NCBI RefSeq assembly: GCF_964213995.1
Contig: NC_135823.1
Span: 992,001-1,056,000 of the forward strand
Length of the DNA: 64,000 nt
From: Mustelus asterias
Lineage: Eukaryota
Direction: 5' to 3'
Positions within the stretch are counted from its first letter, which is position 1; the number at the start of each line of letters is the position of its first letter. Position numbers and translations under genes: made by a program. Below are positions 23,501 through 59,289 of the stretch, piece by piece. The notes under the pieces were generated by a model. That model worked only from the letters and a program-made list of their open reading frames with translations. It ran no database searches and was not told where the DNA came from.

Positions 23501-24501
23501 GCCATGACCCACGAATGATTAAAAACACAGCGATTTAAAATGTAAGAAACGTTTACCCAGAGTATTGAGCACACATCCATCCAATAGTACTCTGACTTTC
23601 AATCGAGAAAAGTTATTGATTGCACTCTACCCGTTGGGTGCTGTGACACACAAACAGTGAGGTATGTCAAACGAATGTTGTGTTCACCCTAACACTGCCC
23701 ACAATGGTGTCATACTTTCCACAGCCCAGTTTGCCATAGTTTCCACCGAATCTGAAAAGCCCCAACGCAGTAGGACTCAGATCAGGTCAGTGTGCAGTCT
23801 GCCGAAGCTACGCAGTCAGACAGAATACAAAGAAAACTATATCAACATATTCAAATAATCTTTTTCTCTGTTAATCGTATTCCAAGTACTGCGACTTCAC
23901 TGTAAGTGAGAGGCGAGTGTGAATTTTAAGCGGAATCACTTTTATATACCAGCATTTAAATTTTCTGAGCTGAAAACGTGAGCCAGTGTTTAGGTGAAGG
24001 AATTTGACCTGATCATATAAAATTATTACTGTTTGCACCCGTAAAACTGAGAAAAAATAAAGAAAAGAATAAATGTAACCAACAATGATGACAAAGAATA
24101 ATGACATTCAATGGCATGGTGTAACAATGGTCAGCACGGCTGTCTCACAGGGCCAGGGTCACGAGTTCGATTCCCAGCAGGGAACACTATTTGTGTGGAG
24201 TTTGCACATTCTTCCCCGTGTCAGCATGCATTTCTTCTGGATGCCCCGGTTTCCTCCCAGAGTCCGAAAGGTACGCTGGTTAGGTGCACGGGCCATGTTA
24301 AATTCTTCCTCAATATACCTGAACAGGCAGCGGATTGTGCTGACTGGCGGATTTTTCACAGTAACGTCTTCGGCGTGTCAATGTCAGCCTACTTGTGCGA
24401 ATAATAAATAAACTTTAAACTTCAATTACAGGCGAGGTTTTTGTAAAGGGTGGCTTCAGATAATGCAGCACTCAGTCGTAATGTACCAACAATCTCTCAA
24501 G

Positions 24502-24835
24502 TTACAGAATCTGCGGCCTATCTGTCTCAAATCCCCTTCGCAATAACAGCTGAAGTGGGCCAGACGGTGGAATTATCCTGTTATAACACTTATGAAGTGG
24601 ATTTGGTGTCCAACTCTGCTTGGTGCAAGCAGCGTCTGGGTGAAGCCCCGGTACTAATAAACACTACATCCCGTGGTGGGGGCGACTGTAAGTTTATTTT
24701 TGAAAAAAACAATCCGTTGTAATGTATTGATTCTGAAAATGCGTCATGTGCAGACGAATGACTCGGGCTCCTACCACTGTACATATCAAGCTGGGTATGG
24801 ACCGCTCCAGAATGGGCCCACACTAGTGGTTGGAG
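24502..24835 (+). pseudogene. Gene B VJ-type V exon
   Basis: LSQIPFAITAEVGQTVELSC...WCKQRLGEAP.../NVLILKMRHVQTNDSGSYHC...LQNGPTLVVG|gtaag. Both V cysteines, W and DSGxYxC are present, with a J-like GxTLVVG end in the same exon. Confidence 0.85.
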
Positions 24836-24926
24836 GTAAGAGAGCAAAATAAATGTATTCAGATTGTGCACAGCATTACCATTTGCGTGTAAATTAATCG
24901 TTCACTGTGTCCCAATCTCTGTCCAA

Positions 24927-25257
24927 TCATTTCCAAAAATAAGACGGCTGTGCTGTTATTTTGTGCCACCGGGTGAGCTGGATTTGAATGACAATGTTCC
25001 CGTAGTGTGTTTTGTCAGTGGAGTTTCCTGCAACCAGATTACTATTTTCTGGAATATTTCTGGCCAGGTCACTGAAGGATGTCGTGATCCCGGGATAATG
25101 GATGCGGACGGAACCTACAGCGTCAGAACCCATGTCATGGTGTCCGGGGACACTTGGAGAAGCGGCACTGTCTGTTCTTGCATTGTTCAACTGGGAATTC
25201 CAGGCGGATACTGGACAAAGAGTGTGTCGTTCCCCGAAGCAGCAGAGGCTGGGACAG
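24927..25257 (+). pseudogene. Gene B C1-set Ig constant exon
   Basis: FVPP...VVCFVSGVSCNQITIFWN...DGTYSVRTHVMVSGDTWRSGTVCSCIV is a classic C1-set pattern (ORF 24864-25268). Confidence 0.9.
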
Positions 25258-26409
25258 GTGTTTTGTGAATCTCCTCGATGATGGTTTGAATTCCAGCCAC
25301 TAAGAAACTGAAGTCTATGAATTACATAGGAGAAACATTCAATTTTAATTGCTTTACCCCCGAGCCCGGTTGCATTTCCCCTTCAACTCAGAATATGGAT
25401 GACAGAGTAGCATAGTGGTTCGCACTGCTACCTCACAGCGGCATGGACCTCGGTTCAATTCCTGGCTTGGTTCACTGTCTGTGCAGACTCTGTACACCCC
25501 TTGTCTGCGTGGGTTTCCTCCGGGTGCTCTGGCTTCTTCTCACCGTCCGAAAATCGTGCTGGTTAGATGCATTCGTCGTGTTAAATTGTCCCTCAGTACA
25601 CCTTAACAGGCGCCAGAGTATGGGATATTCACATTTTAACTTCATTACAGAGTTAATGTAAGCCGATTTGTGACACTAATACTTCAACTCATCTGTTTTT
25701 CTTGATGAAAGTTATTAGTGAATCTCCCTCCACCAACCTTTTAAAACAGTGGGTTTTGGAATTGAATTGGGGTCAGTCCCATCCTGGATGCCTTTTGATG
25801 TTCGGAAAAGAAGTGGTGATTTAATTTTCTTCGATTCCTTTTCTCCTGAGGTATTATTTCAATTTCCTGGAATCTCACTTCAATATTTCTCGTTTCCGTT
25901 TGGTATCTGTTTTATTTTTAATTCCGATAACCTGCAATCCAATCGCATTAAAGTCAGGATCTAAAGCAGCACAGAAATTAGATTCGTAGATTATTTTACG
26001 CTGTTCGTTTCATAATCTGGAACACTCCTGAAAGGCCAACGGAACACATCTAAGGATACATTTCACAACTGGAATTGCATGTGCATTCGGTGGTGAGAAA
26101 TGTGCAGGGCTGCGAAGGAAAATTAGGTAGTGTGGCACTATTGCAATAGATTTTCAACGACGCGATGCGGACATTTTGGATCTGTATAATTACCTGATAC
26201 AGTTTTCAAATAAATGCTGGTGTGATGCTTTTATCATACAACCTGACGCACTCTGAATGTGAAGCTATCCTGACAGGCCTCTCAGATTATTGGTCCCTCA
26301 TCGCAAACATTATGTCATCATTCCATTCCGTACGTTCATGCGTTGCTAGAAATTCAATATGATGTTTCATTTCACTCCCAAGTTTGAGGACACCACTTTT
26401 TAACTTTTT

Positions 26410-27120: not shown

Positions 27121-27205
27121 AGTGTCTGAGTTCAGTTTCCTATCTTCGAAACCCAGAAGCAATTATTTGACGCAGCAGCAGTTTCTAAGTTTTTTCTCTC
27201 TGTAG

Positions 27206-27434
27206 GATTGTGCAAGTTGGAACATCCAATTGTCATAACTGTCCTGGTGATTCCGATTCTCCCCTAGGTCCTCCTTTATATTTGGATTTGGAAGAGCGGC
27301 AGATCAGGTGAGTAATAATGATCAGGAGGGATAATATCATGTTGTTCATCCAATGTGATTCCCCTCGTAGTTTTATGTTGCTGATCACAATGTCTTGTTT
27401 CAGGAGAGCGAGCAAAGGGAGCCCACAATGAAAT
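27206..27434 (+). pseudogene. Gene B TM exon and first cytoplasmic exon
   Basis: GLCKLEHPIVITVLVIPILP*VLLYIWIWKSGRS (27206-27307) and GERAKGAHNE (27404-27434), canonical AG/GT sites. Confidence 0.75.
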
Positions 27435-28919
27435 GTAAGTAACTGAGCCATTTCCAAATTCATCATGAAAACTCTCTCTCCATTTCATACTGTGTTAAGC
27501 ACAGTTCAATCGCGTCACTGATTCCAATGGTATACGTCGAAATATTCCATATTTTAAACTTGAGTATTCTATTTCAAATATTTCTGGCACCTGGGCCAGG
27601 ATTTTTTGAACCTAACAGCTGTTTAATAGTTTTCATTTCCTTGTCTAGTTTGAGCTTGATACAAACAACGCACAGAATGGATCAGAATGAGCGACAAACC
27701 GGTAAATTGCATTCAAATGTTCGCAGAGATTCAATATCATTGAACAGACGTTTCAAAGAATACCTACAGTGCAGAAGGAGGCCAGTCGACCCATCGAGAT
27801 TACACCGAAAATAATCCCACCCAGGCACGATCCTGGTAACTCCACACATTTGCCTTTCTCATTCCGCTGACACTACAGGGCAATTTAGCATGGTCAATCC
27901 ACCTAACCTGCACATCTTTGGAGACTAAGGAGCAATTTCGCATGTCAAATCCACCTGCCTACACATCTTTGGAAACTAAGTGGCAGTATAGCATGGGTAA
28001 TCCACCTGACCTGCATATTTGTGGACATGACGGGAAAATTGAGCTTGGCAAATGCCCATGACCTGCACATCTTTGGACACTAAGGGAAAATTTAGCACGA
28101 ACAATCCACCTAATGTACACAGCTTTGGACACGAAGGGACAATTTAACATGGACAATCCACTTACCCTGGATATCTTTGAACAATATGGAGAAATTGAGC
28201 ATGGCCAATCCACCCAAACTGCAAATGGTTGGACCCTGGGATTAAACCGGAGCACTCAGAGAAAACTCACGCAAGCTCTACACTGACAGCGGCCCGAGGC
28301 CGGAATTGAACCCAGCTCTGTGGCTTTGTGAAGCAGCAGTGCTTCGCAATGCTAAAATGGAATAAATTAATTCAGTGATACGTGTACTTCCCGCCATTAA
28401 AAAAATCCTCAATTATTCTATCTGTTGGTCCGAAAATAAAGTATAATTATTGACTAACAATTCTGGCAGCGAAGTACCATATTGGCATTGACGCCATGCG
28501 GTGTAAATATTCCTGGTCCATCCATTGGCGAATTGCAATCCATTGAAATATTGTTTGAGAGTTGATTTATTGAGGGTCCGTTTATGTATTAGGACAATTC
28601 TAGTATATGTGGGAGCCTTCTTTGGATTGACACACTGTGGTGGCAATTAATGTATTGGGGTCATAGTTGCAAGAGGGCATCATCGGTGCACCGTATCTCA
28701 AATTAATTACAGCTTAGCAAGAACAGGATCTGATTTAAATTGGCATTTTCCACTTTGTTACAGAGGCCGCTATCGCCACACATATAGACAGTTAACACAA
28801 GACAGTGCAGTGCAAGTAAGTTATTTGCAAATATTTTAATACTGTTCAAAACATTGCTGGTTTTCGGAATAAGTTGCAAGGTGTCACTTGCTTGGGAGAA
28901 CCCAAACCGTCCCATGCCG

Positions 28920-29218: not shown

Positions 29219-29439
29219 TTAAATTTTCGGTGGATATTTTTTGCTGCTATCAGAGAACAACTCCATCTCTGAAGCATCTAACTGTGACTCAAATCCCACT
29301 CGTCCGCACCCTGGAATCAGAAAATTAACCTCTGCAGCTCTTCCAACTGATTGTCCAGCGATTGAGTTGATGCTCCGGTTGGAATATGTCAGTCGTACTT
29401 TTCTGCGGACTCCCAGCAAATCGTGTTGCAGATTGCCAG

Positions 29440-30136
29440 TGAAGACGGGAATGGGTTAATGAATTCTAATACTCAAATTGTCAAAGTGAACTCTGTGATA
29501 TTTAGAGATTGTGTGAGAAACACTTTTACGTTCGGGTGTTTCCATGCTCATGTATCCAAGAAGAGATAAGAGTAGCAGCTGTGGTATACAAGACTATGTT
29601 TTTCCAGGCTAATCTGTTCAGGAATGTGGCTAACCCAGCCATTTTGTATTCTTTAATATGTACTGCTGTGTTACAGTAGTGCCTACATACAGGACTTCTG
29701 TGATCGTATAAGGATACATTCATATGTAGTCATCATAACCTGTACCGATATACATTATACAAGTACCTCCGAACATATATAAATTGTTGCATGCCAGTTA
29801 ACTTGCTTGTTCGTGACTGTAACCTTGTACATGAGTGAGACATCCCACAGGTGTCCACAGAGGGCAACAACACTCGCGGCCTTGAGACAACCGTGAGGAA
29901 ACCGCCAAGGCAGCAAGGTTCACATGATGGAAGACAAGCCATAGCCTGGGAACCTGAGGGGCCTGGGACACTGCGGACGTGACGTGGGGGAGGGGGGGGT
30001 ATAAATGTATGTTATTATCCTGTATTATTTGAGAGCTCTGAGGCCGTGTTAGGCATCGGATGTCTCCCACAATTATGAAAATAAACCACTGTATTTTGAC
30101 CGACGAATAGACTGAGAGGTATTTTTACCTACAACA
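29440..30136 (+). repeat. 5' LTR of outer ERV
   Basis: TGAAGACGGG...ACAACA; aligns to 45936-46635 with many substitutions and indels. Confidence 0.93.
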
Positions 30137-30138
30137 AT

Positions 30139-30156
30139 TGGTGGCAAAACCCGGGA
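30139..30156 (+). promoter_or_regulatory. Primer-binding site, tRNA-Phe-like
   Basis: TGGTGGCAAAACCCGGGA vs Phe PBS TGGTGCCGAAACCCGGGA (2 mismatches). Confidence 0.75.
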
Positions 30157-30670
30157 GACCCCGGGAACTGTTTGCGGAAATCTGTTCAGGGGTCCGGTGG
30201 AATGGCCTCGACCGGGACACCGGTATAGATTACTGAACTTGTTGAAGTGGGTCAAAATATAAGTGGGTAATCATCTGTGATGAGAGAGTGTCTGAAATGA
30301 TGAAAGACGTCTGAACTGAGCACATATGGACAAGGGGGCAATTGGCTCTGCCACCCTGCCTTAAACAGTCAGTTAAGAGCGGAACTCTCCCACGCTGATG
30401 TTAGGAATTTGAAATGGGTGTCAGGGTTGCCTGAGGTGTGATGTTCAGACGTGAGTGATAGATAGAGACTGTCTGAGTGACCGCCAGATTTGAAGAACAA
30501 GCCTTTATGTGAAAGCCGGCTGAATAAAAGTATTGTGTAAGTGGTGGTACGGAGGCATCTGATCACCCCTGAACGGTATCACTGAACTCGGATAAGAGAA
30601 ACCTAGGAGGGGGAGAGCGGGAAAGGAGATTAGAAGACTCCAAGGTGGAGAGTATAACCTATTCGATGTT

Positions 30671-31400
30671 ATGGCGGGACAAGGACAGTGGGGCCCGGGG
30701 CCCCTGATAAATGAATATTTGGTTAAGGACAAACTCATTAAACAGATGAACAAAGGGGGGGGGGGGGGTGGATTTTAGACCACCCACTTGACCAACAACG
30801 AAAATGTTTGGACAAAGAAAAAAAAGACAGAAGTAAGAAAATTGTAGTTCTCTTCATTCATCAATTGGCCACAAAATCAAAAAGTACCTGTTACGATTGC
30901 AAGAAACCAGGCTACTTCGCCCAGGATTGTAGGGCGCCAAAGGGGGTCGTGAAGTCTGCGAAATCGCAGATAATGAAGTAATGAGGGAATATGCAGGTTG
31001 CCTGATGAAAGTATAAATGTCAAAGAAACAAGCATTAATACAGAGGATGCAAAAGGATGGCTGGGATACGTCCCAGAACTTAGAGCAGCAGAAAACGTGG
31101 ATAGATAAAGAAAAGAGAAACAAGAGAAAGAAGATTGGCGTACTGTTAACCTATCAGTTAGCTGGACTAATTGAGCAAGATAAATAAAAGATTAGAATGT
31201 TAGAATCCAGAATAAGTGAATTGGAGAAACGAAACCAAGTCTTAGAAGAAAAACAATGGGGAGAGGAAACTGCTCCTCTACCTCCTAATGAGTCCACACA
31301 ACAGAGACCAACCACTCCTCCAGAGGAGTGGGAAGCAATGGAACACAACGTAGCGCCCGTAACCCAGAGGGGAACTGGTGTGCGGCCAAAAGCTAATTAA
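30671..31400 (+). pseudogene. gag: Outer ERV rearranged gag remnants
   Basis: Two segments resemble the inner Gag N-terminus; a degenerate knuckle CYDCKKPGYFAQDC lies at 30889-30930. Confidence 0.7.
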
Positions 31401-34259
31401 AAACCCTTCACCCAGTGTAAAACAGAGATTCGGAGGGGAGGTTCAGAGAGTATTAGGGAATGCTCCCACTTACTGGAGCAGAATTACCACAACAAAACAA
31501 TTAACAGGGGGAAGAATGCACACCAAAGAGGGATCAGTGTATGTGATAACGAGGGAACCCCTAATATTTGGGGAAGGTTGAAGTGGGAATGTGAGAGGTA
31601 TGAGAAAGAGATAAAAGATAGAGCACAACAAGAAAGACTGCAAAGGAAAGATGAGACCAAGAGGAAAGGATTTGTATGGCAAGCCAAACAAAGGAAAGAC
31701 AAAGAGGTATCTGGCTTGCCAATGTTGTTCCAAAATACCGATACGGGTGAACAGAAGTGGTGGAATCGACCCAGTGTAGATAATAACCAGAAATCTAAGG
31801 TAGCCGTCATTGCCCCGATAGATATAACAGACAGCAGCGCCGGCGCCGCTGCAAAGACAGAAGGGACTCAAATCAGGCTCACTTGGTGAGTTTGAAGCGT
31901 GATAGTAAAGGGTTAAACACCAGCAGGTTGTAAATTTCTCTCTCCCTCTCTCTCTTGACAAAGGAAAAGAGAGAGAGAAAGGTGAAAGTGTGCGATCAAG
32001 AGCCTCATGTGGTGGAATAGGGAATAGCAGATCAAAGTGACTTGTTTGCTCTGAGTGTGAGTTTTCATAAATTACTTTGCCCAGTTGAAATTTTCCGATA
32101 GTGCATCGGACAGAGTTTTGGGGAAAGTGGAAAAAATAGCATTACATTACATCTGAAGATTCGTAAGGAGAGTTAATCATTTACACATACAGTAGATTCG
32201 ATCTTGGATCTGCCTGTGTTGGTTACAAGGATAGAAATAATTAATTATGCACATTTTGAGCATAAACCGGAGAGTCTGTAAGAAAATGTAAATGTCTTAA
32301 TTTAGTAGCGATATTTAAAAGTCATAAAAATGAATGGATTATTTGGATCAGGCTTTTTGTTCAATTTGAAAATGTATTCTTGATAGAACTGAAACTGAAA
32401 ATGGAAATAATTATTCCTGCGTAGTTAAAGTGATGACTAATCACTTGTTTATCTTCATCTGAGTGAACTTACTCCTCCGCTTCTCTGCTGAAACAAGCGG
32501 AGAACTAATCCATCCTGTCCCAGACAGGATGGATCAAGACATAAAGTCAAAATTTAACAGAGAAGGGGGTTACATACGTTTCAATGGGAGTGCATGTGTA
32601 ATGATGGGAATTATTATACTGCCATAATGCATTCTAAGTAAATTGTGTTACATGGATATGCAAAGGAGTGAATCAACCGTGAAACGGAAGCGTATTAAAT
32701 GCCAGACGGGCTAAAAGGGAGTGCCCGCCTACAATGCCATATTGACAAATCAATATAATGAGGAGGGAAATAATTCAGTGGAATAGATGAGATAACAAAA
32801 TGCTGAGGACGGGTTTGGTACAAACTGTTAGAGATTAAATTGATAAGATTTCTTGAATTTACTTCCGTTTTGAATTTAATTACAGTTTGGAAGACAACAG
32901 AATAAAACCCATTGTTAATCAACGTCCTGTGTTCTCAAGCGTTTTACTTTCATCCAAGTTTAAGATGTTAAGTCTAAATAAATGTTGGAAGCTTCCATGT
33001 GTATTTGTGTGTTTAACAAAGTAGTTGCGTGAATGTTTTGTTGTTGTTCGCCTCACTGTTTTAATGTTAAGAAAGGAGTTAGACCTTTGAAGGACCATGT
33101 GCCCTTTCCTTGTCTTGAAGTTGAAATTATACGAGTGTAGTCGAGAAGTTAAAAATAAGTAATTTCCTGAAAAAAATAGGAAAGCAGGAACAAAAGAATG
33201 AGGTGCTCATACTGCAGATGAATCAGTTTAAAGTAGATCAAAGTAGTGAAATGAATCGTCGTTCTGATTACTCCAAGTTACAGCAGAGATGAATCACTTA
33301 AAACCTCAGTTGTTAATACAGATACAGATGTTGTCCTTGAGTAATTTTACGCTGCATTATTTGCTTATCATCGAACACCATGAATTGTTGAAACTTGTGT
33401 TGCCAAACAGTTCTAAATAACATGAAAATAATATGAAATTCAAGGCTTGCATGATGTTCCGATAACATGCAACTGTAACTGGTTCAAATTACATACTGCC
33501 TTTGGGATTGCATATTGTTCAAGGTTTTAGCACATCGCCAGCTAGAAATCAAACCAAAACATTTCGAATCAAGTAACTATCGTTTTTGTTATGTGTATTG
33601 TGCTTGTTATTATTCTGAAAATGCAGGGATTTTGATCTGGAGCTCAGTTTAAAAATGGAAACGGCTTACATTAAGAGGGTTTGGATATACCAGAGAAAAT
33701 CAAATCCTGAAGAGCCTTAACCAATTGTATAATATAAATTGTGTTTTGATAAAAACATAATTTTGTTGGAGAAAAGGCGATTTATTCTAACCATTCTTCG
33801 CCATAATTTGTAATGACTTGCACAATTAACATTAACATGACAGGAAGTGAAACCGGATTACTGAAGGGAGAGAGAGAAAAAAAGAGTTGGAGACTGGCTT
33901 TGCAGCATTCAACTGAACACAACAGATAGCTCATCCGGTTATCTGTGTCTTTAAAGAGCTGTGTCTGGCAGCATAAACAATTGACATCTGTGACCACGAA
34001 AGACTGTTGTTTACCTTATGAGACAATCTGTCTATCGAAGGATCCTCTCTGCTTAAACATCGCACTGTCAAATGTGGGAAAACAAATGATCAAATTAGAA
34101 ATAATGTAAGAATACATCATATAAAGATCGGAGCTGAATGGCCTGTGATTTTAATGAGGAAAGTGATGTATTTTGATGGGATTAATGAATTGATGTCCAA
34201 CTGCAGCCGTTGCAGAGTGTTATTTGGCTTCCACTAAGCTTTCTATGGAAGGGGGACAT

Positions 34260-34475
34260 GTGGTTAAATGTATAATGCACTGGCTTGTGTGGACAAAGGT
34301 ATTGCCCACCATACTAATGAGATTAAGGGTTACCACAAATCGAACAACCGGATTAACCCCTTATGAGCTAATGACAGGACAGGTGATGCAATTACCAGAA
34401 AGCATCATAACAGATGGGACTGATGAACGTCCACTGAAAGATAAAATCAGGAGATATGTTTTGGAACTAAGCACC
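34260..34475 (+). pseudogene. pol: Outer ERV integrase C-terminal remnant (continues 44054-44300)
   Basis: WTKVLPTILMRLRVTTNRTTGLTPYELMTG...KDKIRRYVLELST resumes after the TSD as QLKGMRKLV...GPSEVIISGATCACIDIRGKG. Confidence 0.85.
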
Positions 34476-35082
34476 TGTAGGCGGGCATAAATTTTGTGGG
34501 TATTAGGATTAGAATATTTCTTAAACTATAACTCGATAAATGAAGCAAAACAGGACAGCATTCAGCCAGAAAGGTGTGAGTAAGGCAAGCAGGCATCTTT
34601 TAAACACAGAAACCAGGTTGACAAAGACTCAGGAACTCGCATCAATATGCTATTCAGAAGATATCTTGAGACCTGGAAAACTTCCTGACATCCCATCAAA
34701 CACCCATTGTCCAAAGGAATTCAGAGACATAAAGCAATTATCACACTCTTAAACCAAACTTTACATATTAAAACTCTAGACCAGAAAACCCATTAACGGG
34801 ATAACTATAAAAGAAAACCATTTACACATCAAACTCCACACCCACAAACCTATTGAAACAGGATGATTATATCAGGAAACCACTCACAAACCATTTACAT
34901 ATCAAAACAGATCGTTACTATAACTATACTCCGTTTTGGCAGGCAGGCAGAGTACTTTGCGGGACTGTCTTGTCTGTGTCCTGATTGTACCTCCGTCGAC
35001 GCAAAAAACTATAATAAACTGTGCTGTTATCGATCTTGGCTCTGGGTGCGAGTGGTGTGGTATCTGTTCACTCGCGCTAACA
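34476..35082 (+). repeat. 5' LTR of inner ERV
   Basis: Starts TGTAGGCG, ends CTAACA; AATAAA near 35013; near-identical to 43443-44049. Confidence 0.97.
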
Positions 35083-35084
35083 AT

Positions 35085-35102
35085 TGGGGGCTCGTCCGGG
35101 AT
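35085..35102 (+). promoter_or_regulatory. Primer-binding site, tRNA-Pro
   Basis: TGGGGGCTCGTCCGGGAT, the canonical Pro PBS, 2 nt after the LTR. Confidence 0.95.
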
Positions 35103-37408: not shown

Positions 37409-39736
37409 GTGGCATCGGCCCCCGCCCCGGGAACGGACCCCCGTATCTGGGTGAATGCATCGTTAGGGGGCCGGCGATGCAAAATATTAATAGATACGGG
37501 GGCTTCGATATCCCTCACCAACATGGCACTACCCACCACCCACCGTTCCATAGTAGTAGTAGGAATAGGGGGGGATAGGACTATAGCATATCAGAGCGAA
37601 GCAGTGTTACTTGAGGTAGAGGGGATCATTCTCCCCGTACACTTCTGGGTGGGCCCAAATGAAGAAGGGACAATTTTGGGAATAGACCTCCTGGGAGAGT
37701 TAGGAGCAGTGGTGGACGCTTTCAATAAGCGCCTGCTGTGGACGGCAAGGAAAGAACACAAGAGCGGGATCCAAGGATACTGGGTCCCTAATAAGAACGT
37801 AGCAGCCATAGGCATGGGGGCTCCGGCTCCGACGGCCCGAGACTGGAAGAAGGAGGGACTAGTGGGACTCTTATGTCAAGCACTACCCCGGGTCTGGGCT
37901 ACAGGCAAGCAAGACTGCGGTCTCGTCACAATCCTTCCTTTACAAATACAAGGACCAGCCCATGCCCCTCATAAACAATATCCCATAAAACCCGAGGCGT
38001 TACAGGCAACCGAAACAATCGTCCAGGCTTTGGTTAAACGGGGCATCCTGAGACCCACCGTGTCCCACACAAATTCCCCGATGTGGCCCGTCCGTAAGCC
38101 AGACGGGAACTACCGACTAACCATCGACTATACCGCCCTGAATAAGGTCACCCCAAAGAAACACCCTATCGTTGCGAGCCCGGCCACTATATTTAACGGA
38201 CTGCGACCTGAATATTGTATCTTCTCCGTGCTAGACATAGCAAACGGATTCTGGTCAATTCCACTCCACCCAGACTCCCAGGAGAAGTTTGCCTTCACCT
38301 GTGGAGGTAGACAGTACACCTGGACCCGTCTCCCCCAGGGATTCCACAATAGCCCCAACATATTCCACCGGGTTATGAGCAAAGCCCTCGAAAATTGTAA
38401 CTTATCCCCCTATGAGAGCGCTTTTCTCCAATATGTGGATGACATCTTGATCGCCTCCACTAACCCGACGGGGCATTTGGGAGCCCTGTCAGTAATCCTG
38501 CGGGGCTTACAAACAGCAGGATTTAAGGTTAACCCAACCAAAGCACAACTCGCAAAACCAGAGGTCCGATATCTGGGGCATTACATAAGTCAGGGAAAGA
38601 AAACCCTTCCCACGGACCGAAAAACAGAAATTGCCAACATGACCCGTCCGAACACAGTTAGGGGGGTGCGTAGGGTAATGGGACTCTTTAATTACTGTCG
38701 GAATTTCATCGATCAGTTTGCATCCATAGCAGAACCTATCCAGCGATTGGTAAAAGGGGGGAGGCCGGGGGCAGAAATCATTGAATGGGGACCCGAACAA
38801 GAAACAGCATACTCCCACCTGAAATCAGAATTATTAGCGGCCCCAGCCTTATGCCTGCCCAACAGAGCGAAACCGTTCCATCTTTTTTATAATGCGGAGG
38901 ACGGATTCTATAGCTCCGTTGTGACTCAAGAAAGTGGGGGCACCATGAGACCTGTAGCATATTATTCGGTGCGGCAGTCCCCGATAGCCAAAGGACTACA
39001 CAAATGTGTGGCAGCCCTGGACTGTGCCGCATGGGCAGTCAGGGTGTGCGAACCCATTACTATGTTAGGACAGATCATCCTGCACACAAAACATACAATA
39101 GTAGAATTATTAAACACAGGTCGACTCCGAACTGTTTCAGATGCTCGAAGGGCAACTTGGGAGGCAGTGCTCCTTCCTCAGGACCAATCTATTAAAATCG
39201 TACGAGATACCGGAAGAAACCCAGCAGAGGGGTTCCTTCCAGACGGCAGTCCACATCACTGTCCGATTAACCCAGACATGGATACAGAGGATGGGATTAG
39301 TGACCAGCCACTGGAGAACCCCGATATAATACTATACGTAGACGGGTCCCGAAGGCAGGTGGAGGGACAGTACCGCACAGGATGGGCAGTGGTAGATCAG
39401 GAAGGAACACTAATAGCAAAGGGCACCATGGGGGGGGAGACCTCTGCTCAAGTGGCCGAGCTTATAGCATTAACAAAGGCCCTTAGCGCAGGAAGGGACA
39501 AAAGGGTAAACATATACACGGACAGTCAATATGCGTTCGGGGTGGTTCACGACTATATGATAGCATGGAATAGGCGCGGATTCATTACCGCAGCGGGGGG
39601 ACACATAAAACATGAAAATATAATTCGAGACCTGGCCACAGCATCCAGACTACCCTCAGAAGCAGCCGTAATTAAAATAAAAGCCCATCAAAAGACAAGG
39701 ACTGTAGAGCAGCAGGGGAAGCCCTCCCACAGATAG
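37409..39736 (+). CDS. pol: ERV Pro-RT-RNaseH (C-terminal end of RNase H deleted and frameshifted)
   Basis: Protease ILIDTGAS, RT LPQG and YVDD, tether, RNase H LYVDGS / SAQVAEL / YTDSQY. The expected GNxxAD motif is missing near 39720, where the frame shifts. Confidence 0.95.
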   Translation: MASAPAPGTDPRIWVNASLGGRRCKILIDTGASISLTNMALPTTHRSIVVVGIGGDRTIAYQSEAVLLEVEGIILPVHFWVGPNEEGTILGIDLLGELGAVVDAFNKRLLWTARKEHKSGIQGYWVPNKNVAAIGMGAPAPTARDWKKEGLVGLLCQALPRVWATGKQDCGLVTILPLQIQGPAHAPHKQYPIKPEALQATETIVQALVKRGILRPTVSHTNSPMWPVRKPDGNYRLTIDYTALNKVTPKKHPIVASPATIFNGLRPEYCIFSVLDIANGFWSIPLHPDSQEKFAFTCGGRQYTWTRLPQGFHNSPNIFHRVMSKALENCNLSPYESAFLQYVDDILIASTNPTGHLGALSVILRGLQTAGFKVNPTKAQLAKPEVRYLGHYISQGKKTLPTDRKTEIANMTRPNTVRGVRRVMGLFNYCRNFIDQFASIAEPIQRLVKGGRPGAEIIEWGPEQETAYSHLKSELLAAPALCLPNRAKPFHLFYNAEDGFYSSVVTQESGGTMRPVAYYSVRQSPIAKGLHKCVAALDCAAWAVRVCEPITMLGQIILHTKHTIVELLNTGRLRTVSDARRATWEAVLLPQDQSIKIVRDTGRNPAEGFLPDGSPHHCPINPDMDTEDGISDQPLENPDIILYVDGSRRQVEGQYRTGWAVVDQEGTLIAKGTMGGETSAQVAELIALTKALSAGRDKRVNIYTDSQYAFGVVHDYMIAWNRRGFITAAGGHIKHENIIRDLATASRLPSEAAVIKIKAHQKTRTVEQQGKPSHR

Positions 39737-39756
39737 CTGCCATCACCTCTTCCCCC

Positions 39757-40983
39757 ATGGAAGAGATGGATGTTCATAAACTACAGGGTAGCGCTGACCC
39801 AGACGAGGTGGCGCGGTGGAAACAGACCGGGGCGTCCTTAGACGAAGATGGTATATGGAGGAAAGGACATCAAGTAGTCGCCCCCTCATTCATACAGGCG
39901 GAACTACTTCGACTCCACCACGAACCAAACCACTCCGGACGGGATGGGACCCTAGCTCGTTTATCAGGAGATTGGTGGTGGCCAGGGATGGGGCGGGATG
40001 TAGCTAAGCACTGCCAAAGATGCATCATATGCGCACAGCATAACCCTGGCCAGCCCCTGAAGGTTAAACTAGCAAACCAACCCAGGCCAAAGGGACCTTG
40101 GGAAAACCTCCAAATTGACTTAATCGGCCCTCTACCCACCAGTCGTGGGAAGAAGTACTGCCTGGTCCTCATTGACCAGTTCACCCGATGGGTAGAAGCC
40201 TTCCCAACCCGGGATTGGGGGGCAACCACTGTAGCCCACATCTTAGCATATGAGATAATACCCAGATGGGGAGTCCCGTTACAACTGGACTCCGACCAGG
40301 GGACACACTTCACAGGCAAGGTAATGAAACACGCATGTAAAACCTTAGGGATCCGACAGCGGTTCCATATACCATACCACCCCCAGAGTGCTGGAATGGT
40401 AGAGAGAATGAATCGCACCCTCAAGAACACGATAGCAAAAACTATCGCAGAAACAGGTCAGGGGTGGGTAGATGTCCTTCCCTGTATCCTGATGCGCCTA
40501 CGGGCCACCCCAGGTCGAACCATAGGGCTCACCCCGTTCGAACTAATGACCGGGAGAGCAATGCGACTCCCCGAAAACATCGCCGTGGGAGGGGAAGAAA
40601 TGACACCCCTCCGGGACAAGCTCAAACGATATGTGCAACACTTAGATTCACAACTCCGAGACCTGCACCACACAGCCAGGGACCAGCAAGCCATTAGAGA
40701 CCAGGCTAAAAAGGAAAATGTCAGTCATACCCCCACCCTCCCTCGAGTAGGGGATAGGGTTTTGATTCGGATTGCCCCAGACCGACCCGGGTTTGCACCG
40801 AAATGGATGGGACCCCACGAGGTTATCCTTACCAGCGATACATGTGCGTGTGTCGATGTGAAAGGAAAAGGCCGATGGAAACATTGGTCGCAATTAAAAT
40901 CCTATCACCACGGGGAAAGAGGACAGAGCAGACTGACTGAAAGGACAGAGGATGCTCCGTCCACTCCACGTATTGGCCCTTAA
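39757..40983 (+). CDS. pol: ERV integrase portion of pol
   Basis: HHCC (HEPNH...CIIC), DDE core QIDLIG / DSDQGTHF / PQSAGMVERMN, C-terminal PKWMGP. Confidence 0.95.
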   Translation: MEEMDVHKLQGSADPDEVARWKQTGASLDEDGIWRKGHQVVAPSFIQAELLRLHHEPNHSGRDGTLARLSGDWWWPGMGRDVAKHCQRCIICAQHNPGQPLKVKLANQPRPKGPWENLQIDLIGPLPTSRGKKYCLVLIDQFTRWVEAFPTRDWGATTVAHILAYEIIPRWGVPLQLDSDQGTHFTGKVMKHACKTLGIRQRFHIPYHPQSAGMVERMNRTLKNTIAKTIAETGQGWVDVLPCILMRLRATPGRTIGLTPFELMTGRAMRLPENIAVGGEEMTPLRDKLKRYVQHLDSQLRDLHHTARDQQAIRDQAKKENVSHTPTLPRVGDRVLIRIAPDRPGFAPKWMGPHEVILTSDTCACVDVKGKGRWKHWSQLKSYHHGERGQSRLTERTEDAPSTPRIGP

Positions 40984-41124
40984 CCATCTTTGTCCTTACA
41001 GCGGAAATCGAAATAACAACCTTTATTTTCCAACACTAAAGGAACTATATGCCAACCGAGGCATGAATGTATATATGTAGATAGAAATAAGAATAAGATA
41101 AGTAAGACAAGTTCATCACCTAAT

Positions 41125-43293
41125 ATGAACCTAACGACTGGCGGCCACCAGGTTTTATATATCCTCCCCCAACCCCTCTCCAGAACCATGTGGACCACTT
41201 GGAGGATGATCCTCGCGGCGACCTTCCTGACGAGTGTGGCACCTGAAGAACACCCCATCTACCCGCGATTCCACGGGATAGCCTTCAACACATCCGAGGC
41301 ACTATGTGTGCCAGCTGGACCGGACCCTATGAACAGTAGAACTTATCTTAACGCATGGCTACAAGTTTACCCGGGTATCAACGAGATCTGCTTCACTTGC
41401 ACTTTAGAAGGACTCCGAACATGCATTCAACAGCGGGACCTCCAGAACAGAGACCAGTGCGTTTTTTGGGACTCTCTGCGCCCTCCCCGACAACCCACAA
41501 GAGGCCCGACCACAGGACACTTTGAATTCAAACATGGACATTTGCGGCTATTACGGACTTGTTGAGGCTCCCGCAGTCTCATTGTATGTATGTTTTGCAC
41601 CGCTTCCAACGCGGGCCCCCACGACCACAAGGCCCGAAATCTTACCCTGTCCCTTGCAAAGCAGGGGACCGGAGGGAGGACTGGTGTTGTGGAACGAGGG
41701 GGAAATTGTGTACGACAACGTAAAACATGAGGTGGTACCTGTCCTGATCGACATTTCAGGAATCCAGGTCCCCAGGCATTGCTCAGAACAGGTACAGAAC
41801 TTGTATCAGATGTTAGAGAGAGAGACCATAAAACGGGCCATTGACGCAATGGGGGCCACACACTACAGGGGAAACATAAACACCAACACATACCGAAGCA
41901 AACGGGGTATTATCAATGATATGCTCACAGGGCTGAATACAGGAGACACAATGATTAACTCCATTGACATCCAGGGCCTCAACAGTAAAATTGAACAGCT
42001 GAAAGGGGTAATGAAAAACATATTACAGCGGTCATTAGACCAGCAGGCGGAACACGCATTCTTAGGGGAAGCGGGCGCCCATATCCAACTAGATGGGATT
42101 GCAGTGTTAGAAGCACATGCCCGAACTATCAATCGCCTCATAGACAGGGAAAGGGAAGACACTGCCCGGGTACAACAGGGACAGTTATGCCATGCATATG
42201 GTCAGTGGATGGTGGCACAAATACGACACAATTTGGACCAGGTACACAGGGGGGAAGTGCCCGATTGGATCGACAGCGCCCAACTAGCGCAACTCGCAGA
42301 TCAGAAGGGGGTGCTGGATGACCGGACCCTGAAGGGGATGACACGAGTATATCCAGTAATCCCCGACTGCGAGGTTAGTGAGGGCACCGGGATAGGAATG
42401 GTTCTGCTAATTCCAACGGTCACACAGGACGCTGGACCATTCCCCATCTTCCGAATTGAAAATATTGGTGTCGTTAGGGGCAATGCTTCCTCCGCTACCA
42501 CATAACCGAAAACATGGCCATCTCCAAACATGGCATAATGTCCAGTGTTTCTCTCGCAGGGTGCAAGCAGAGGGGAGAGGTCACCATCTGTCCTCACCCA
42601 CTGAGACAAGGAGAGACAGCAGAATGTGGGTTTAACCGAACACAGGACTGCACCTTAGAGATTATACCCGTAGACCCACATTTCGCCCGGGCAGGATACG
42701 GGGGGCGGGGTAGATACTGTGTAGCCACCACACGTACATCATTCACATATAACGGATTAACATGCCCAATCCCCGACCCTAACTTCTGTTTTACCCCTCG
42801 CAAGCCAGTCACTATAGGTCAAGCTCACATCACCAATATTCGAAATAGGCAGACCATAGCCTTTAATGCCACAGACCCCCTAAAAGACAACCTAAGAGAC
42901 TACCAAGAACCCGAGCAAGCCCCCATCCCACACCTGACCGAAGTCCTAAGGGAGCTCCGACTTAAAGTAGGACACTCCGTCCGATTATACCACCGGTTAC
43001 AGTCACACATCAAAACCTTGGAACAAGATACCGAGACGGCGTTACGAAGTCAAACATGGGTACAGAAGGTGTGGGACTGGGGTCTAAATGTAAACATCCA
43101 CCCCTGGGTCCGAATTACATCGCACACACTGGTGGTCATCCAACTCATCTTAGCCCTTTCCTGGGGATTGGCTACATGTTATACCTACCGCCAGCGGAAG
43201 AGAATGAAAGCACATAAGAACTTAGTTAGAACAATTGGTATGATGGGGCAGGTAGCCAAGCGGGATGATTACTCCCGCCTACACATGATTTGA
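41125..43293 (+). pseudogene. env: ERV env, paramyxovirus-F-like architecture, split by two 1-nt indels
   Basis: Signal-like MILAATFLTSVA, furin site RSKR (41894-41905), heptad region, Cys-rich domain, C-terminal TM and YSRL tail. The three frames join if one T is removed from the T-run at about 41462-41467 and one C is added at about 42490. Splice acceptor at 41001, donor at 35140. Confidence 0.85.
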
Positions 43294-43442
43294 CAAACTC
43301 CGGGACTCCCCTAAACTGTACGACTGCAGCGTACGGAGGCAGGAAGCACCGGACACAAAATATAATAAAGGGGAGAAAGATCGGTTAGAAAAGTGAAAAG
43401 GAAATAAACAACAAAAATTCACTTTTGACCGACAGGGGGGAC

Positions 43443-44049
43443 TGTAGGCGGGCATAAATTTTGTGGGTATTAGGATTAGAATATTTCTTAAACTATAACT
43501 CGATAAATGAAGCAAAACAGGACAGCATTCAGCCAGAAAGGTGTGAGTAAGGCAAGCAGGCATCTTTTAAACACAGAAACCAGGTTGACAAAGACTCAGG
43601 AACTCGCATCAATATGCTATTCAGAAGATATCTTGAGACCTGGAAAACTTCCTGACATCCCATCAAACACCCATTGTCCAAAGGAATTCAGAGACATAAA
43701 GCAATTATCACACTCTTAAACCAAACTTTACATATTAAAACTCTAGACCAGAAAACCCATTAACGGGATAACTATAAAAGAAAACCATTTACACATCAAA
43801 CTCCACACCCACAAACCTATTGAAACAGGATGATTATATCAGGAAACCACTCACAAACCATTTACATATCAAAACAGATCGTTACTATAACTATACTCCG
43901 TTTTGGCAGGCAGGCAGAGTACTTTGCGGGACTGTCTTGTCTGTGTCCTGATTGTACCTCCGTCGACGTAAAAAACTATAATAAACTGTGCTGTTATCGA
44001 TCTTGGCTCTGGGTGCGAGTGGTGTGGTATCTGTTCACTCGCGCTAACA
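43443..44049 (+). repeat. 3' LTR of inner ERV (preceded by PPT 43431-43442)
   Basis: Copy of 34476-35082; purine tract GACAGGGGGGAC immediately upstream. Confidence 0.97.
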
Positions 44050-44456
44050 CACCCAACTAAAAGGGATGCGCAAATTGGTAAAAGACAATCAGGAAATAAC
44101 AGACAGAGAGAGAGAGAGAGCTTGAAATGCTCCCTGACGTCCTCGTGAAAACACTACCTCACAAATCAGGGTTTGTACTAAAATGCGATGGGCCGTCTGA
44201 AGTTATAATTAGTGGAGCTACCTGCGCCTGCATAGACATCAGAGGGAAAGGTATATGGCAATATTAAGCATTAAACTCAGTTGAAAGAATATGCTGAAAC
44301 TAATTGGGAAAATATGTGATATACTCCAAATGCAGGTGTGTACAGAAAACGACTGACCTCCAAGCAAGCTCAGCGGGTTGACATGAAGTTGCGCATGGAC
44401 AGTATAGCCTTTGGACCTTTGTATAACAGTCGCGCGGGTTATTAGTAAGTGATAAG

Positions 44457-45882
44457 ATGCTTTTCCTGCTGCTTCTCACGACCCTGTCCCTGTTAGCCAT
44501 TGCGGGAAAGTGTCGATGGAATTATGAGAATTTAGGCATGGGACACAATGACACAATGACATAATGATGACTCTGTCTATTGTATGAATACCTTTGCGTA
44601 TATGTCTTATCTGTATGTATCACAATCGAATCTGAGCAAGTGCTCGGTCTGTTCACCCATTCCCACGCACGGAGGAAAAGGAGGAATTCCTTTATTCCCT
44701 ATCCCTTTATCAGCTCCGGAAGTAATTAAATGTGTTTTAAAACAGACTGGAACCCAGAAAGGGACAAGGCAACTGGCATTCAAAACCCCACTGAGTACCA
44801 CTATGCAGGGTACGTTTAACACGAGCAACGCTTTTGTTGTTTTAAAACCAGGGGGCGGAGGGTGTACTTTATCGACCTTCAAGAAACATTACCAGCCCAG
44901 CAATGACAGATCAGGTTCCCCACCCTAATTCGTTGAGAAGAATAAACAAAGGGGATTTATCTGCCTGATGAGAAATGGAACCATACGTGTTGGCCGTAGG
45001 TACTATATACAGCAGATTGTTATCACTAAAGCCGCTTGTGGCATTGTACGGGTCACAATTCAGTGACCCAAAGCCACCGTCCCGGTCAGCCTCTCCTCCG
45101 CTTATGTAAGCGAGATGATTGCATATAACGGTACCTATTTTATCTGTGGAAACAATGCCTATCCATGGCTTCCGTGGAATTTGGCAGGATCGTGTTATTT
45201 GGCATATGTGGTGCCTTATATTCACCATTACACTGACTTACCAAACCACCCCAAAATACTCCTGTTTCGGGCTAAGCGAGCCATGAGTGAGACAGAACGG
45301 TCCTTCATGATAGCCTACCCACTTTATCGGACAGCAAAGACAGCACAAGAACTTATACGGCTGGCCTCGACCCGAGAGAGAATTGCAAATGAGACGAAAG
45401 ATGGGTTCGAGGAGGTGAGCACAGCCATCTCTGAAATATCAGCAGAGGTCGTAGCTATTCGGACTGTGGCGTTACAGAACCGATTGGCACTGGATTACGT
45501 GCTGGCCTCCCAAGGAGGAACATGTGCCATAGTTGGCTTGGAATGCTGTACGTATATTCCCGATGCTTCAGAGAATATAACTCGCTTAGCAGATCATATT
45601 AAGCACGTGGCGAGAACAATACAGGATGAGGGGAGCCAGTATCACAATTACAAACCTCCGGGATGGCTGGGGCAATGGTTTGGGTCGTGGGGTGCATACC
45701 TTATGCATGGAGTGATTGTATGAATTGTAATTGTAATTGCTTGCTGTGTTTGTATGGCATTACTGAACATCTGCAGTAAAACGGGAACAGCCCGAACTAT
45801 GCCGGGTGCAAGTGTACAGGCAGAGGGGGCAGACCTCCTGACAAAGGAGCTGGACCCATATGCTGGTAACCTTTTATTCTGA
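44457..45882 (+). pseudogene. env: Outer ERV gamma-type env (frameshifted)
   Basis: Signal MLFLLLLTTLSLLAIAG, SU CxxC (CSVC), furin RAKR, immunosuppressive domain LQNRLALDYVLA, CX6CC (CAIVGLECC), TM. Confidence 0.92.
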
Positions 45883-45935
45883 ATTGGTCATGGGTCCATG
45901 TGCGGACCACCTGGCACCCGACCAAAAGGGGGGAG

Positions 45936-46635
45936 TGAAGACGGGAATGGGTTAATGAATTCTAATGCTCAAAGTGTCAAAGTGAACTCTGTGATATTTA
46001 GAGATTGTGTGAGAAACACTGCAGAACTCATGTTTACATTCAGGTGTTTTCATGCTCGTGTATCCAAGAACAGTTAAGAGTAGCAGCTGTGGTATACAAG
46101 AGTATGTTTTTCCCGGCTAATCTGTTCAGGAATGTGGCTAACACAGTCATTTTGTATTCTTTAATATGTACTGCTGTGTAACAGTAGAGCCTACATACAG
46201 GTATTCTGTGATCGTATAATGATGCATTCACATTTGTTCATCATAACCTGTGCCAATATACATTATACAAGTACCTCCGAACATATATAAATTGTCGTAT
46301 GCCAGTTGACTTGTTTGTTCGCGACTGTAACCTTGTACGTTAGTGAGACGCCCCACAGGTGTCCACAGAGGGCAACAACACGCGTGGCCTTGAGACAAAC
46401 GTGAGGAAAACGCTGAGGCAGCAAGGTTCACACGATGGAAGACAAGCCACAGCCTGGGAACCTGACGGGCCTGGGACACTGCGGACGTGACAGTGGGGTA
46501 TCAATGTCTGTTCTTAACCTGTATTTGCTGAGAACTCTGAGGCCGTGTTAGGCATCGGACGTCTCTCACAATTGTGAAAATAAACCACTGTATTTTGACC
46601 GACGAATAGACTGAGAGGTATTTTTACCTTCAACA
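45936..46635 (+). repeat. 3' LTR of outer ERV
   Basis: Follows PPT 45924-45935; AATAAA near 46579; ends TTCAACA. Confidence 0.93.
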
Positions 46636-47029
46636 CAAAATGTCTGCTATGTTTCACTTTCTTTATCTCCGCGTCAAAATCTAGTTCTCCCTCACTCAGC
46701 TCCCAGTTTCCTGAATTCTGTGCACACTGGGAAATCAATTCATTGCTGGAATTACGATGTCCAAAGCTATGGTAGTTTTGCTGAGGAATTAAAAGATGTT
46801 TAACGTTGTAAATGTACAGCGAAAGTGTGTTCGCGTGAGTGTGCGTGCGTGTGAAATTGTCTTTCTGTGTATCTCTGCATGTGTAGGTGTGAGAGAGTGA
46901 GTGTCTGTGTGTTTGTGTGTTTCTCAGTCCGTGTATCTCTCTGTGTGTGACGGTGTGAGATCGTATATGGGTTGTGTGTGAGAGAGCTTCTCTGTCTGCT
47001 TGTCTCTTTCTGTATTTGTCGGTGTCAGA

Positions 47030-47072
<43 letters not shown>

Positions 47073-48929
47073 CGTGTGTGTATCTGAGAAAGATTCTCTG
47101 CCTGTGTGGCAAATGTCGGTGTGATATTTTGGATGTGTGTCTGTGTGTGAGATTGTCAGTGAATCTCTCCGTATATGTCGGTGTGAGATTGAGTATTTGT
47201 GTGTGTGTGTGTGAGTGTGTTTGAGTGCGTGCGTCTGGCATGTGTGCCAGAGAGAGAGAGGAAAAGAGAGTGTGAATGAAAGAGGAAGAGAGAGTGAGAG
47301 AGGGCGAGAGACTGCGTGTTTGAGGGAGGTGTACAAGTGAACGTTTGCGTTACTGAATGTGTATCATTTTTTGAGATTGTGTGTGTGTATCTGTGTATGA
47401 GGCTGCGTGTGTAAGATTGTATGTGTATGTGCATGGGCCTCTATGTTTTTCTGTGTAAGTGTGTCTGAGTCTTTGTGGGTGAGAGTGAGAATGTGTCTGT
47501 ACATGTGGTTCAGAGTTCCCTCCAGTGTTCTGACAACGTATAATCACTTAACAAACATCTGAACACATGTCAATTTAACTGGGTCATTAAACAATTGTTC
47601 CTTAAGGGTCCATACTGTTCCCAAAGGTGCTGCCGGATTTACTACTTTAAATTCGGTGAATGCAATTTCAACAGGTGGTGGTCAATGATGTGGTGCTTCG
47701 GCAGCTCAGGAAAGACGCAAGGTAAATGCACAGTGGCTGGTTTGATGGTGGAAGTTTCAAATATTTTAAAGGGACCTGAATCTGCATGTAAATTGCTACA
47801 ACATAAAGCCAACGGAACGGGTGCTGGACAGAGCGATTAGAATAGACAGCCAGTTTTCTAGCGGGCACAGACATAATGGGGGAATAGCCTCTTTCTATGC
47901 AGTATCTGTCCTGTGGTTCATTGCTGCCAAGGCTGGTTGTGAGTAATTGTGAGAGATATGCCAAAAGATGAAGGGTGGCACGGTAGCGCAGTGTTTAGCA
48001 GTGTCGACTCTCAGCCCCCATGATCCGGGCTCAGTTCCAGCCTTGGGAGATTGGCCGTGTGGAGTTTGCAGATTGGCCCCGTGTCTGCGTATTTTTCCTC
48101 CGGGTGTTCTGGTTTCCTTCCACAGTCCAAAGATGTGCAGGTTAAGTGGATTGGTCATGCTAAACTGTCCCGTATTCGCCCAAAATTTGGAGGTTAGACG
48201 GATTATTCATGGGAACTGTGTGGGGTTACGGGGTTGGGTGGTGGAGTGGACCTGTTTAAGATACTGTGACAGAGAGACGGTGCAGTAAGTATGGGCGGAA
48301 TGGTCTCATTCTGCACTGTAGGCATTCTATGGTTCTGAACGGACTTGATGGGAAAGATGCTGAAAAACTGCTCAGGGAATCTTGAACATGACACATGGAG
48401 AAACACAGCAATCTGATTGGCTGTTTGACAGTAATCGAATTGATAGACACATTGCACCACTGTTCTGAATAAATGTCAGTGATGACTGTGTTAAGTCGCT
48501 TTCTAAATTCTGCTTCTCCGTCACGACGTAATTTCAGTCAATTTCAGCCGATAGGGATTGGGTCGTTAAGCATTTTCAAGGCCGAGATAGTCAGATTCGT
48601 AGTCACAAAGGGAATCAAGCGTTATGGGAATCGGCGGGAAAGTGGAGTTGACAATTCTCAAGTCGGAACAGTCATGAGCTCATGACATGGCGGAGCAGAC
48701 ACGATGGGTTGACTGACCTATTTCTGCTTCTGTGTCTTATGAGCTTGGGATGCAACCATCTAACTCTTCCATCTACACATTAAGCCACCAATTCTCCATT
48801 TGAGATTGAGGCAAATGGAAGCATATCGAATAGTCACTTTCAAAAGGGAATCGGATAAAAATCTTGTTGGAAAGAACTTCGCTGAGCATTATGAGGAAAG
48901 CTAAAATCAAGCTTGTTCTAAATGGAAGA

Positions 48930-49290
48930 TGATGACCTGGTGATCTTATCGCTAGACTATGAATCTCGAAGCAAAGTGAATTTTCGGGCGACCAAGGTTC
49001 GAATCCCGCCATGGCAGATGGTGGAATTTCAAATCAGTAAAAAATAATCTGGAATTAAAAATCTAGTGATAACCATGAAACCATTGTCGATTGTCGAAAG
49101 CAAACCAACTGGTTCACTCATGTCCTTTGGGGAAGGAAATTTGCAACCCTTACCTTATATGGTCGGCATGTGACTCCAAAGCCACAGCAATGTGCTTGGC
49201 TCGCCACTGTCCTATAAACAAGAACAACTAGGGATGGACAATAAACACTGGCGAGCCAGCGACGCCCATGTCCCACGAACGAATAAAATA
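48930..49290 (+). mobile_element. SacSINE1/DeuSINE-type SINE
   Basis: tRNA-like head (GGTTCGAATCCC), core CTGGTTCACT..TGTCCTTT.GGGAAGGAAA, tail shared with the CR1/L2-group LINE. Others at about 590-930(-), 17110-17325(+), 23177-23525(+). Confidence 0.7.
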
Positions 49291-49490
49291 ATTGGATGGC
49301 TTATTCAAAGATCCAACACGGATTCAATGAGCCAAATAGTCTCCATCTGAGCTGTGTCATTCTGTGATTTCATGTAACCCGTTTGAGGTTCGGGGAAATC
49401 TTAAATATGTATGGGCCGCAGGACGCCTTCTGCACTATAGGGACTATATCACTCTCTGTGATAATTCTCTATGATTTATGAATGTTTCAG

Positions 49491-49565
49491 AGTGGACCTC
49501 TCTACGCAACCCTGGATTTGGCCGCTTTGCAAAAGCGATCAAAAAAGAAGGTGGATCGAAAATGA
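49491..49565 (+). pseudogene. Gene B terminal cytoplasmic exon with tyrosine motif
   Basis: tgtttcag|SGPLYATLDLAALQKRSKKKVDRK*; AATAAA motifs downstream near 49709 and 49920. Confidence 0.75.
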
Positions 49566-59288: not shown

Positions 59289-59289
59289 T

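Follow-up and report, generated by a model that had tools for sequence, protein, structure and literature searches.

Introduction

The PRARP1/PRARP2 genes of Fu et al. 2019 and the tetrapod VJ-C1 genes of Ohta et al. 2019 are reportedly paired, non-rearranging VJ(-C1) membrane genes whose products carry a tyrosine motif and form disulfide-linked dimers. Such PRARP/VJ-C1 genes are said to occur in bony fish, amphibians, reptiles and birds, those of birds having a C1 domain that has degenerated, and PRARP reportedly comprises two linked gene types that are expressed in lymphocytes and form heterodimers. Sharks are not known to have a clear multigene receptor family of the natural killer (NK) type. 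Here we describe a cluster of germline VJ-C1 receptor genes in the shark Mustelus asterias, starting from one broken member, gene B, that lies in a 64,000-nucleotide stretch of contig NC_135823.1 (C23:992001-1056000 of the genome; hereafter the window). The explanation that we consider rather probable is that these VJ-C1-Cys-transmembrane (TM) genes, which fall into two ancient types (A and B), encode A-B disulfide heterodimers that are T-cell receptor (TCR)-shaped, mostly inhibitory and probably the shark PRARP pair.

PMC10751288 places PRARP in the major histocompatibility complex (MHC). The published shark candidates for a receptor that predates RAG are UrIg and UrIg2, which, according to PMC12227049, are multi-C1 homodimers not made by lymphocytes: UrIg is secreted and has 3 C1 domains, UrIg2 has 9-11, and both lie in the MHC or in the immunoglobulin heavy-chain (IgH)/TCR complex, with expression in liver and gill. 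We found no account of the shark cluster in the literature; a mention in Fu 2019, Ohta 2019, Flajnik 2023, Ohta 2015 or their supplements is possible.

A two-type receptor cluster

An earlier note on the window, made from its sequence alone, had proposed that gene B belongs to a multigene birth-and-death family with intact members elsewhere in the cluster, and both expectations were borne out. Compared with the whole genome, the gene B C1 exon gave 65 matches, mostly at the tip of C23. These resolved into 50 loci, with 45 at C23 0.08-1.71 Mb, three at 3.08-3.27 Mb and two on contig C73 (52 locus rows were reduced to 50 by merging two pairs as single genes split by insertions, and one locus on C3499 was left uncounted). 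Genes of the main cluster share the VJ-C1-Cys-TM layout over a span of ~1.6 Mb and comprise 23 of type A and 22 of type B/C. Type A, to which gene B itself belongs, has the J strand LxNG, an additional Cys pair in V and the tail motif GPLYASL; type B, subtype C included, has an FGNG J strand and the tail motif ETLYARL. The two types are interleaved along the cluster (31 of 44 neighbour pairs switch type, vs 22.5 in shuffled orders, p=0.008), and regular repeats of ~110 kb run through C23 0.08-0.58 Mb.

Open frames in both V and C1 were found at 24 of the 50 loci, by a test that cannot see splice or leader lesions. Exon-by-exon models of 18 type A loci gave three (L008, L003 and L017) with eight exons open to the terminal motif, L003 among them lacking the first V Cys. 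A further three (L012, L005 and L011) are open through the first tail exon, their later exons being unmapped. In L001 the acceptors are non-canonical and the tail contains a stop. The cluster turns over by duplication and decay, with about half of its loci broken, gene B among them.

Across the family, V and J lie in one exon, and the length of complementarity-determining region 3 (CDR3) is fixed within each type. A scan of the V exon and intron found no REARRANGEMENT: sites resembling a recombination signal sequence (RSS) occurred at 1 of 40 family loci, a chance-like match in a broken copy, vs 6 of 7 TCR or immunoglobulin light-chain (IgL) control V genes. The same scan of gene B was empty, in agreement with the earlier claim that it has no RSS-separated segments.

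Phylogeny and distribution

In a careful C1 tree of 84 rows, the family forms one clade (100/99) on a branch of 0.63, set apart from IgL, IgH/IgNAR, MHC class I alpha-3 and the multi-C1 genes of contigs C8 and C16 that are candidates for UrIg. Relatives from bony fish, amphibians, reptiles and birds fall within this clade. The IgL clade outside it includes both a germline-joined IgL gene on C13 and an IgL gene embedded in the C23 cluster, so the family does not sit inside a germline-joined IgL isotype, a placement that the earlier note had named among the outcomes that would undo its reading. We rejected IgL membership because C1 lies outside the IgL clade and because TM and tail exons follow the C domain.

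Rows for all trees were picked by hand, nine being removed from the V tree and nine more from the joined V+C1 tree. A V tree of 76 rows, built by the quick procedure only, puts shark B with tetrapod type 1 (94). The V+C1 tree (44 rows) recovers the same pairing at 97/94 and joins shark A to type 2 at 92/86, with bony-fish sequences as a third group. A clade of shark A and B only was rejected by the approximately unbiased (AU) test (p-AU 0.016), and because of this the A/B split, as read from these alignments, likely predates the split between sharks and bony fish.

A C1 profile search returned 59 longer proteins, all from sharks or rays and automatically named IgL, IgH or TCR; the closest were labelled Mustelus asterias. 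When these 59 were examined, the stalk Cys was present in 48/48 TM-bearing proteins, and a terminal YAxL-type motif was found in 14/22 of type A and 23/26 of type B (a further regular-expression match in P0038 was set aside, not being that motif). A more sensitive search found proteins of the same layout in turtles, alligators, lizards, a caecilian, a frog, lungfish, coelacanth, gar, sturgeon, paddlefish and birds. No Pfam C1 match was obtained in the one bird protein scanned, and none of the homologues returned by the search is named PRARP, the bird relatives inside the C1 clade being unnamed. In Chelonia and Alligator both types are found on the same contigs; they apparently also lie on one contig in Heterodontus, Cetorhinus, Rhincodon and Stegostoma, and appear in Mobula under consecutive accessions.

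That the exons are spliced together in at least one family member, a point on which the earlier reading depended, is shown by P0227, a complete spliced leader-V-C1-TM-tail open reading frame (ORF) of a skate-like type C gene, carried on a 1,540-nt Logan contig. This evidence concerns type C; type A yielded none. In alignments of eight sequencing runs, no joint across the V-C1 intron appeared among the joints listed, one of the listings being swamped by repeats, and this says nothing on expression; no RNA run was listed among the holders of the sequence.

Predicted structure and sequence variation

The predicted model of type B is confident over the ectodomain. Its V domain is closest to TCR V-alpha (Z 14.7, root-mean-square deviation (rmsd) 1.9, 103 residues aligned) and its second domain to the CH2 domain of IgG (Z 13.5, rmsd 2.4, 101 aligned), followed by CH3 (Z 13.3), although the neighbour rows are tied within 1-2 Z units. 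Foldseek gave antigen-binding fragment (Fab) and TCR chains as top matches for the same model. The AlphaFold model of type A, with a mean pLDDT of 37.9, was not used. By sequence, the best PDB matches of A are mostly light-chain or single-chain Fv entries, and those of B include many TCR-alpha chains.

Among 13 type A copies, dN/dS was 0.50 (0.33-0.75) in the V framework and 0.55 (0.37-0.84) in C1, with a point estimate of 2.67, given without an interval, over seven CDR3 codons. In four near-identical A copies, pN was 0.21 in CDR3 vs 0.02 across framework and C1 (Fisher p=0.011); the corresponding intron value was 0.013. Six B copies showed the excess elsewhere, with pN vs pS of 0.17 vs 0.04 in CDR1 and 0.22 vs 0.09 in CDR2; CDR3 was not enriched in these six (p=0.16). 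Divergence is concentrated in the CDR-equivalent loops.

Six copies (P0020, P0038, P0046, P0021, L013 and L019) carry an Arg 7-9 residues past the stalk Cys. Such TM-Arg versions occur in both types, none of the six has the terminal motif, and these copies resemble FcR-gamma-coupled receptors. P0020 (Heterodontus) and P0038 (Scyliorhinus) have a distinctive TM sequence in common, and in the C1 tree the P0038 ectodomain groups with an inhibitory paralog of its own species. For these two copies this suggests that the activating TM exon is old and that the ectodomains attached to it have undergone conversion.

Anatomy of gene B

Mapped against an intact paralog, gene B has eight exons, all on the forward strand. 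The leader exon (23847..23901) begins with ATA, where paralogs have ATG, and has a TAA at codon 4. As the earlier note had seen, V and a J-like strand ending in NGPTLVVG share one exon (24502..24835); this type A VJ exon is 334 nt long vs 333 in intact copies, with a +1 frameshift near 24704-24715. The intron that follows (24836..24926), put at ~90 bp in that note, measures 91 nt, has the acceptor AA and holds no RSS. The C1-set exon (24927..25257) is 331 nt long vs 330, with a second +1 frameshift near 24959. The note's assignment of the second domain to the C1 set stands, Pfam C1-set scoring 34.5 bits (cut-off 21) with no C2 or I-set hits and the type B model agreeing. So does its description of a juxtamembrane Cys and uncharged TM in the next exon (27206..27307), where a TAG now lies at 27265-27267.

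The tail needed more correction. It had been described as three exons with TYRQL and PLYATL motifs; there are four (27404..27434, 27649..27701, 28766..28815 and 49491..49565), and the last does encode SGPLYATL, here the form of a conserved GPLYA[ST]L motif, before the stop. TYRQL is in frame in the third, where paralogs have TYGKR-like equivalents (TYGKR, TYGMG, TYGKV, TYGKI, AYGMR and SYGMR). We rejected it as a signalling motif, its lack of conservation marking drift; among the tail tyrosine motifs, conservation is confined to the terminal YA[ST]L. The type A J strand, that of gene B included, is L-x-N-G and not the canonical FGxG, vs FGNG in the second chain type.

Gene B is dead because it lacks an ATG, carries a leader stop, has gained one nucleotide each in V and C1, has lost the C1 acceptor, contains a TM stop and is interrupted by nested endogenous retroviruses (ERVs). 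It is a pseudogene, in itself ordinary. Assembly error as the source of the frameshifts was rejected, DNA contigs of runs X1/X2 being identical to the window across both, with the reservation that these runs are possibly the assembly's own source.

Other features of the window and genome

The nested ERVs occupy 17 kb of the last intron of gene B, and the insertion is missing from the paralogous gene A. The older ERV (29438..46635, forward strand) has long terminal repeats (LTRs) that are 92% identical and a TLV_coat envelope remnant. Inside it lies a younger LTR element (34476-44049) with LTRs 99.8% identical over 608 nt, a 4-bp target duplication and gag, pol and integrase ORFs. Further downstream in the younger element, ORFs at 41017-43293 have no Pfam match and resemble a broken envelope gene of another type. 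Gene A (314..12040, reverse strand), a second broken type A paralog, faces gene B head to head. Beyond gene B, in tail-to-tail orientation to it, are the TM and tail exons (57718..61092, reverse strand) of a broken type B gene whose C1 and V fall past the window end.

Inside the receptor cluster, at C23:1595918-1598328, lies an IgL minicluster (L081) whose V, followed by a 12-spacer RSS, is split from a degenerate J, with a C as the third element. It is probably a pseudogene and groups with Rhincodon IgL in the V+C1 tree (100/96); linkage of Rhincodon IgL to A and C receptor members of that species is likewise suggested. The 100-kb flank of the cluster holds, as judged by eye, repeats and two 7TM-like ORFs; these 7TM receptor-like ORFs (L093:3996-4517 and L097:7621-8601) lie at ~1.74 and 1.79 Mb.

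Linkage of the family to the MHC, raised in the earlier note, found no support, the cluster being on C23 and the MHC on C8, where 140 of 140 MHC class I matches fell. Matches to PBX, APH1, zeta-zeta, nicastrin, EMG1 and PRPF31 were absent from C23, several lying on small unplaced contigs. On the MHC contig, C8:50.17-51.09 Mb holds a cluster of IgL C exons within ~3 Mb of a PBX gene. L078 (C8:1.85 Mb, on the same contig) and L076 (C16:64.42 Mb) are related to each other: both combine a joined VJ exon with two or more C1 exons, and the C1 tree pairs their C domains; UrIg is only a candidate identity for them. L073 (C373), with a germline-joined VJ, and L117 (C75) are IgL-like and group with turtle IgL, apart from the other sampled shark IgL loci.

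Discussion

The reading that we favour would work as follows. One A and one B chain would pair through V-V and C1-C1 contacts and the single stalk Cys of each, giving a combining site that varies mainly at CDR3 of A and at CDR1 and CDR2 of B, and combinations of fixed genes would yield a small repertoire. The lone C-terminal tyrosines of the two chains (GPLYASL in A, ETLYARL in B) could together form a two-site dock for SHP-type phosphatases. The minority in which an Arg stands at the start of the TM and the terminal Tyr motif is missing would instead use an FcR-gamma-like adaptor and be activating. The chains are likely inhibitory and disulfide-linked, both properties being read from their motifs.

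Several points weigh against this reading. A single stalk Cys fits homodimers equally well, and the A/B alternation could be mere tandem duplication of an A+B block. The A motif, with Pro at -2, is not a canonical immunoreceptor tyrosine-based inhibitory motif (ITIM), and type A lacks FGxG. The identity with the PRARP pair, a probable one, is drawn from features reported for PRARP. In the quick V tree the family is not resolved as one clade, and deeper forks, including those to TCR and NITR, are open; in the V+C1 tree the node joining A to type 2 is unstarred; the group tested by AU was named only after the trees had been seen; and all trees were built without TCR C, SIRP, tapasin, MDIR and PRARP (150 kb of C24 yielded no TCR C exons). 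The CDR limits were drawn by eye, pS in CDR3 is also high (0.19) in the same four A copies, and the CDR3 variation of A could come from conversion or local mutability. Seven database models have neither terminal motif nor Arg, and, of the TM-Arg copies, L019 is itself broken and L013 has lost its tail acceptor.

A Tyr motif and a stalk Cys are present in each of the two chains, both A and B have TM-Arg versions, and the ~110-kb repeats suggest block duplication, all of which would suit A and B being independent SIRP- or NITR-like paired receptors, monomers or homodimers, with the alternation left by duplication of a two-gene block. We take this possibility seriously but consider it distinctly less probable than A-B pairing, given that both types have been retained as neighbours in groups ranging from rays to turtles and alligators, that copy numbers stay at ~1:1 despite heavy turnover and that variation falls in complementary loops. 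The long C1 branch outside the IgL clade that holds the embedded gene, the fixed CDR3 length within each type and the V-C1 intron of ~90 nt vs ~2.6 kb in the C13 IgL make it improbable that the genes descend from IgL or TCR genes that were joined by RAG and then acquired a TM and tail, as opposed to being a never-split lineage. Such an origin would account for best PDB matches to IgL and TCR and for a split IgL gene within the cluster, and germline joining is known in shark IgL lambda (PMC12227049) and in gar and turtle sigma-2 (PMC5985310).

Decay also has to be weighed, since 26 of 50 loci fail the V+C1 test and splice or Cys lesions occur even in loci that pass (L001, L003). It is nevertheless very improbable that the family consists mostly of decaying, non-functional segmental duplicates: framework and C1 dN/dS in the 13 A copies are 0.50 and 0.55 with the intervals given above, full eight-exon open models exist, and the family is conserved across jawed vertebrates, with a spliced ORF in P0227.

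If the germline A-B heterodimer reading is right, it is possible, and we offer this tentatively, that a non-rearranging, TCR-shaped heterodimer has been kept in jawed vertebrates for >400 million years, and that in sharks it became a combinatorial germline repertoire with varied CDRs and with inhibitory and activating forms, maybe the missing shark NK-type system. Because the locus holds a RAG-split IgL gene, the family may also be a sister of the two-chain Ig/TCR precursor. With minimal VJ-C1-Cys-TM chains of two types, ancient and linked, it has the layout of a TCR pair and allows one to ask whether two-chain pairing and CDR-focused variation preceded rearrangement or arose apart from it, and it is a candidate multigene NK-type receptor system of sharks. 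On the practical side, database labels of IgL, IgH or TCR on these genes can distort counts of shark immunoglobulins. The earlier note's overall reading is supported, but the second chain type, the TM-Arg copies, the wide distribution among bony vertebrates and the embedded IgL gene escaped it, and it gave TYRQL too much weight.

Among known systems, the likeness to PRARP extends to a single-exon VJ without RSS, one C1, a TM, a tail Tyr motif, a stalk Cys and two linked types; the scanned bird relative without a Pfam C1 match would fit the C1 degeneracy reported for birds. The differences are a cluster of ~45 copies vs a pair, TM-Arg versions, varied CDR loops and an embedded IgL gene, to which PMC10751288 adds location, PRARP being in the MHC and the shark cluster on C23 with the MHC on C8. 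With UrIg and UrIg2, as described in PMC12227049, the family shares a non-rearranging single-exon VJ, C1, a split leader, occurrence in elasmobranchs, automatic annotation as IgL and, probably, disulfide-linked dimers, but it has one C1 followed by a TM and Tyr tail and is multigene.

The V-C1-Cys-TM layout recalls TCR alpha/beta and gamma/delta, and the predicted V of type B is structurally nearest TCR V-alpha. Unlike TCR genes, the family has neither RSS nor separate J, most copies lack the charged TM residues for CD3, and the tail is long and bears the Tyr motif. Germline-joined IgL differs in that the family C1 lies outside the IgL isotype clades and is followed by a TM and tail. The SIRP ectodomain is V-C1-C1 and the second domain of NITR is of the I type. 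By these definitions, both resemble the family in their joined VJ domain, inhibitory and activating versions and birth-and-death clusters. SIRP is set apart by its description, with two C1 domains vs one and no SIRP sequence compared, and NITR by its I-type domain vs C1-set and by V domains that form their own clade in the quick V tree. By the features tested, the family is not IgL, UrIg, SIRP or NITR; its members have the build of a TCR chain and likely function as paired innate receptors do.

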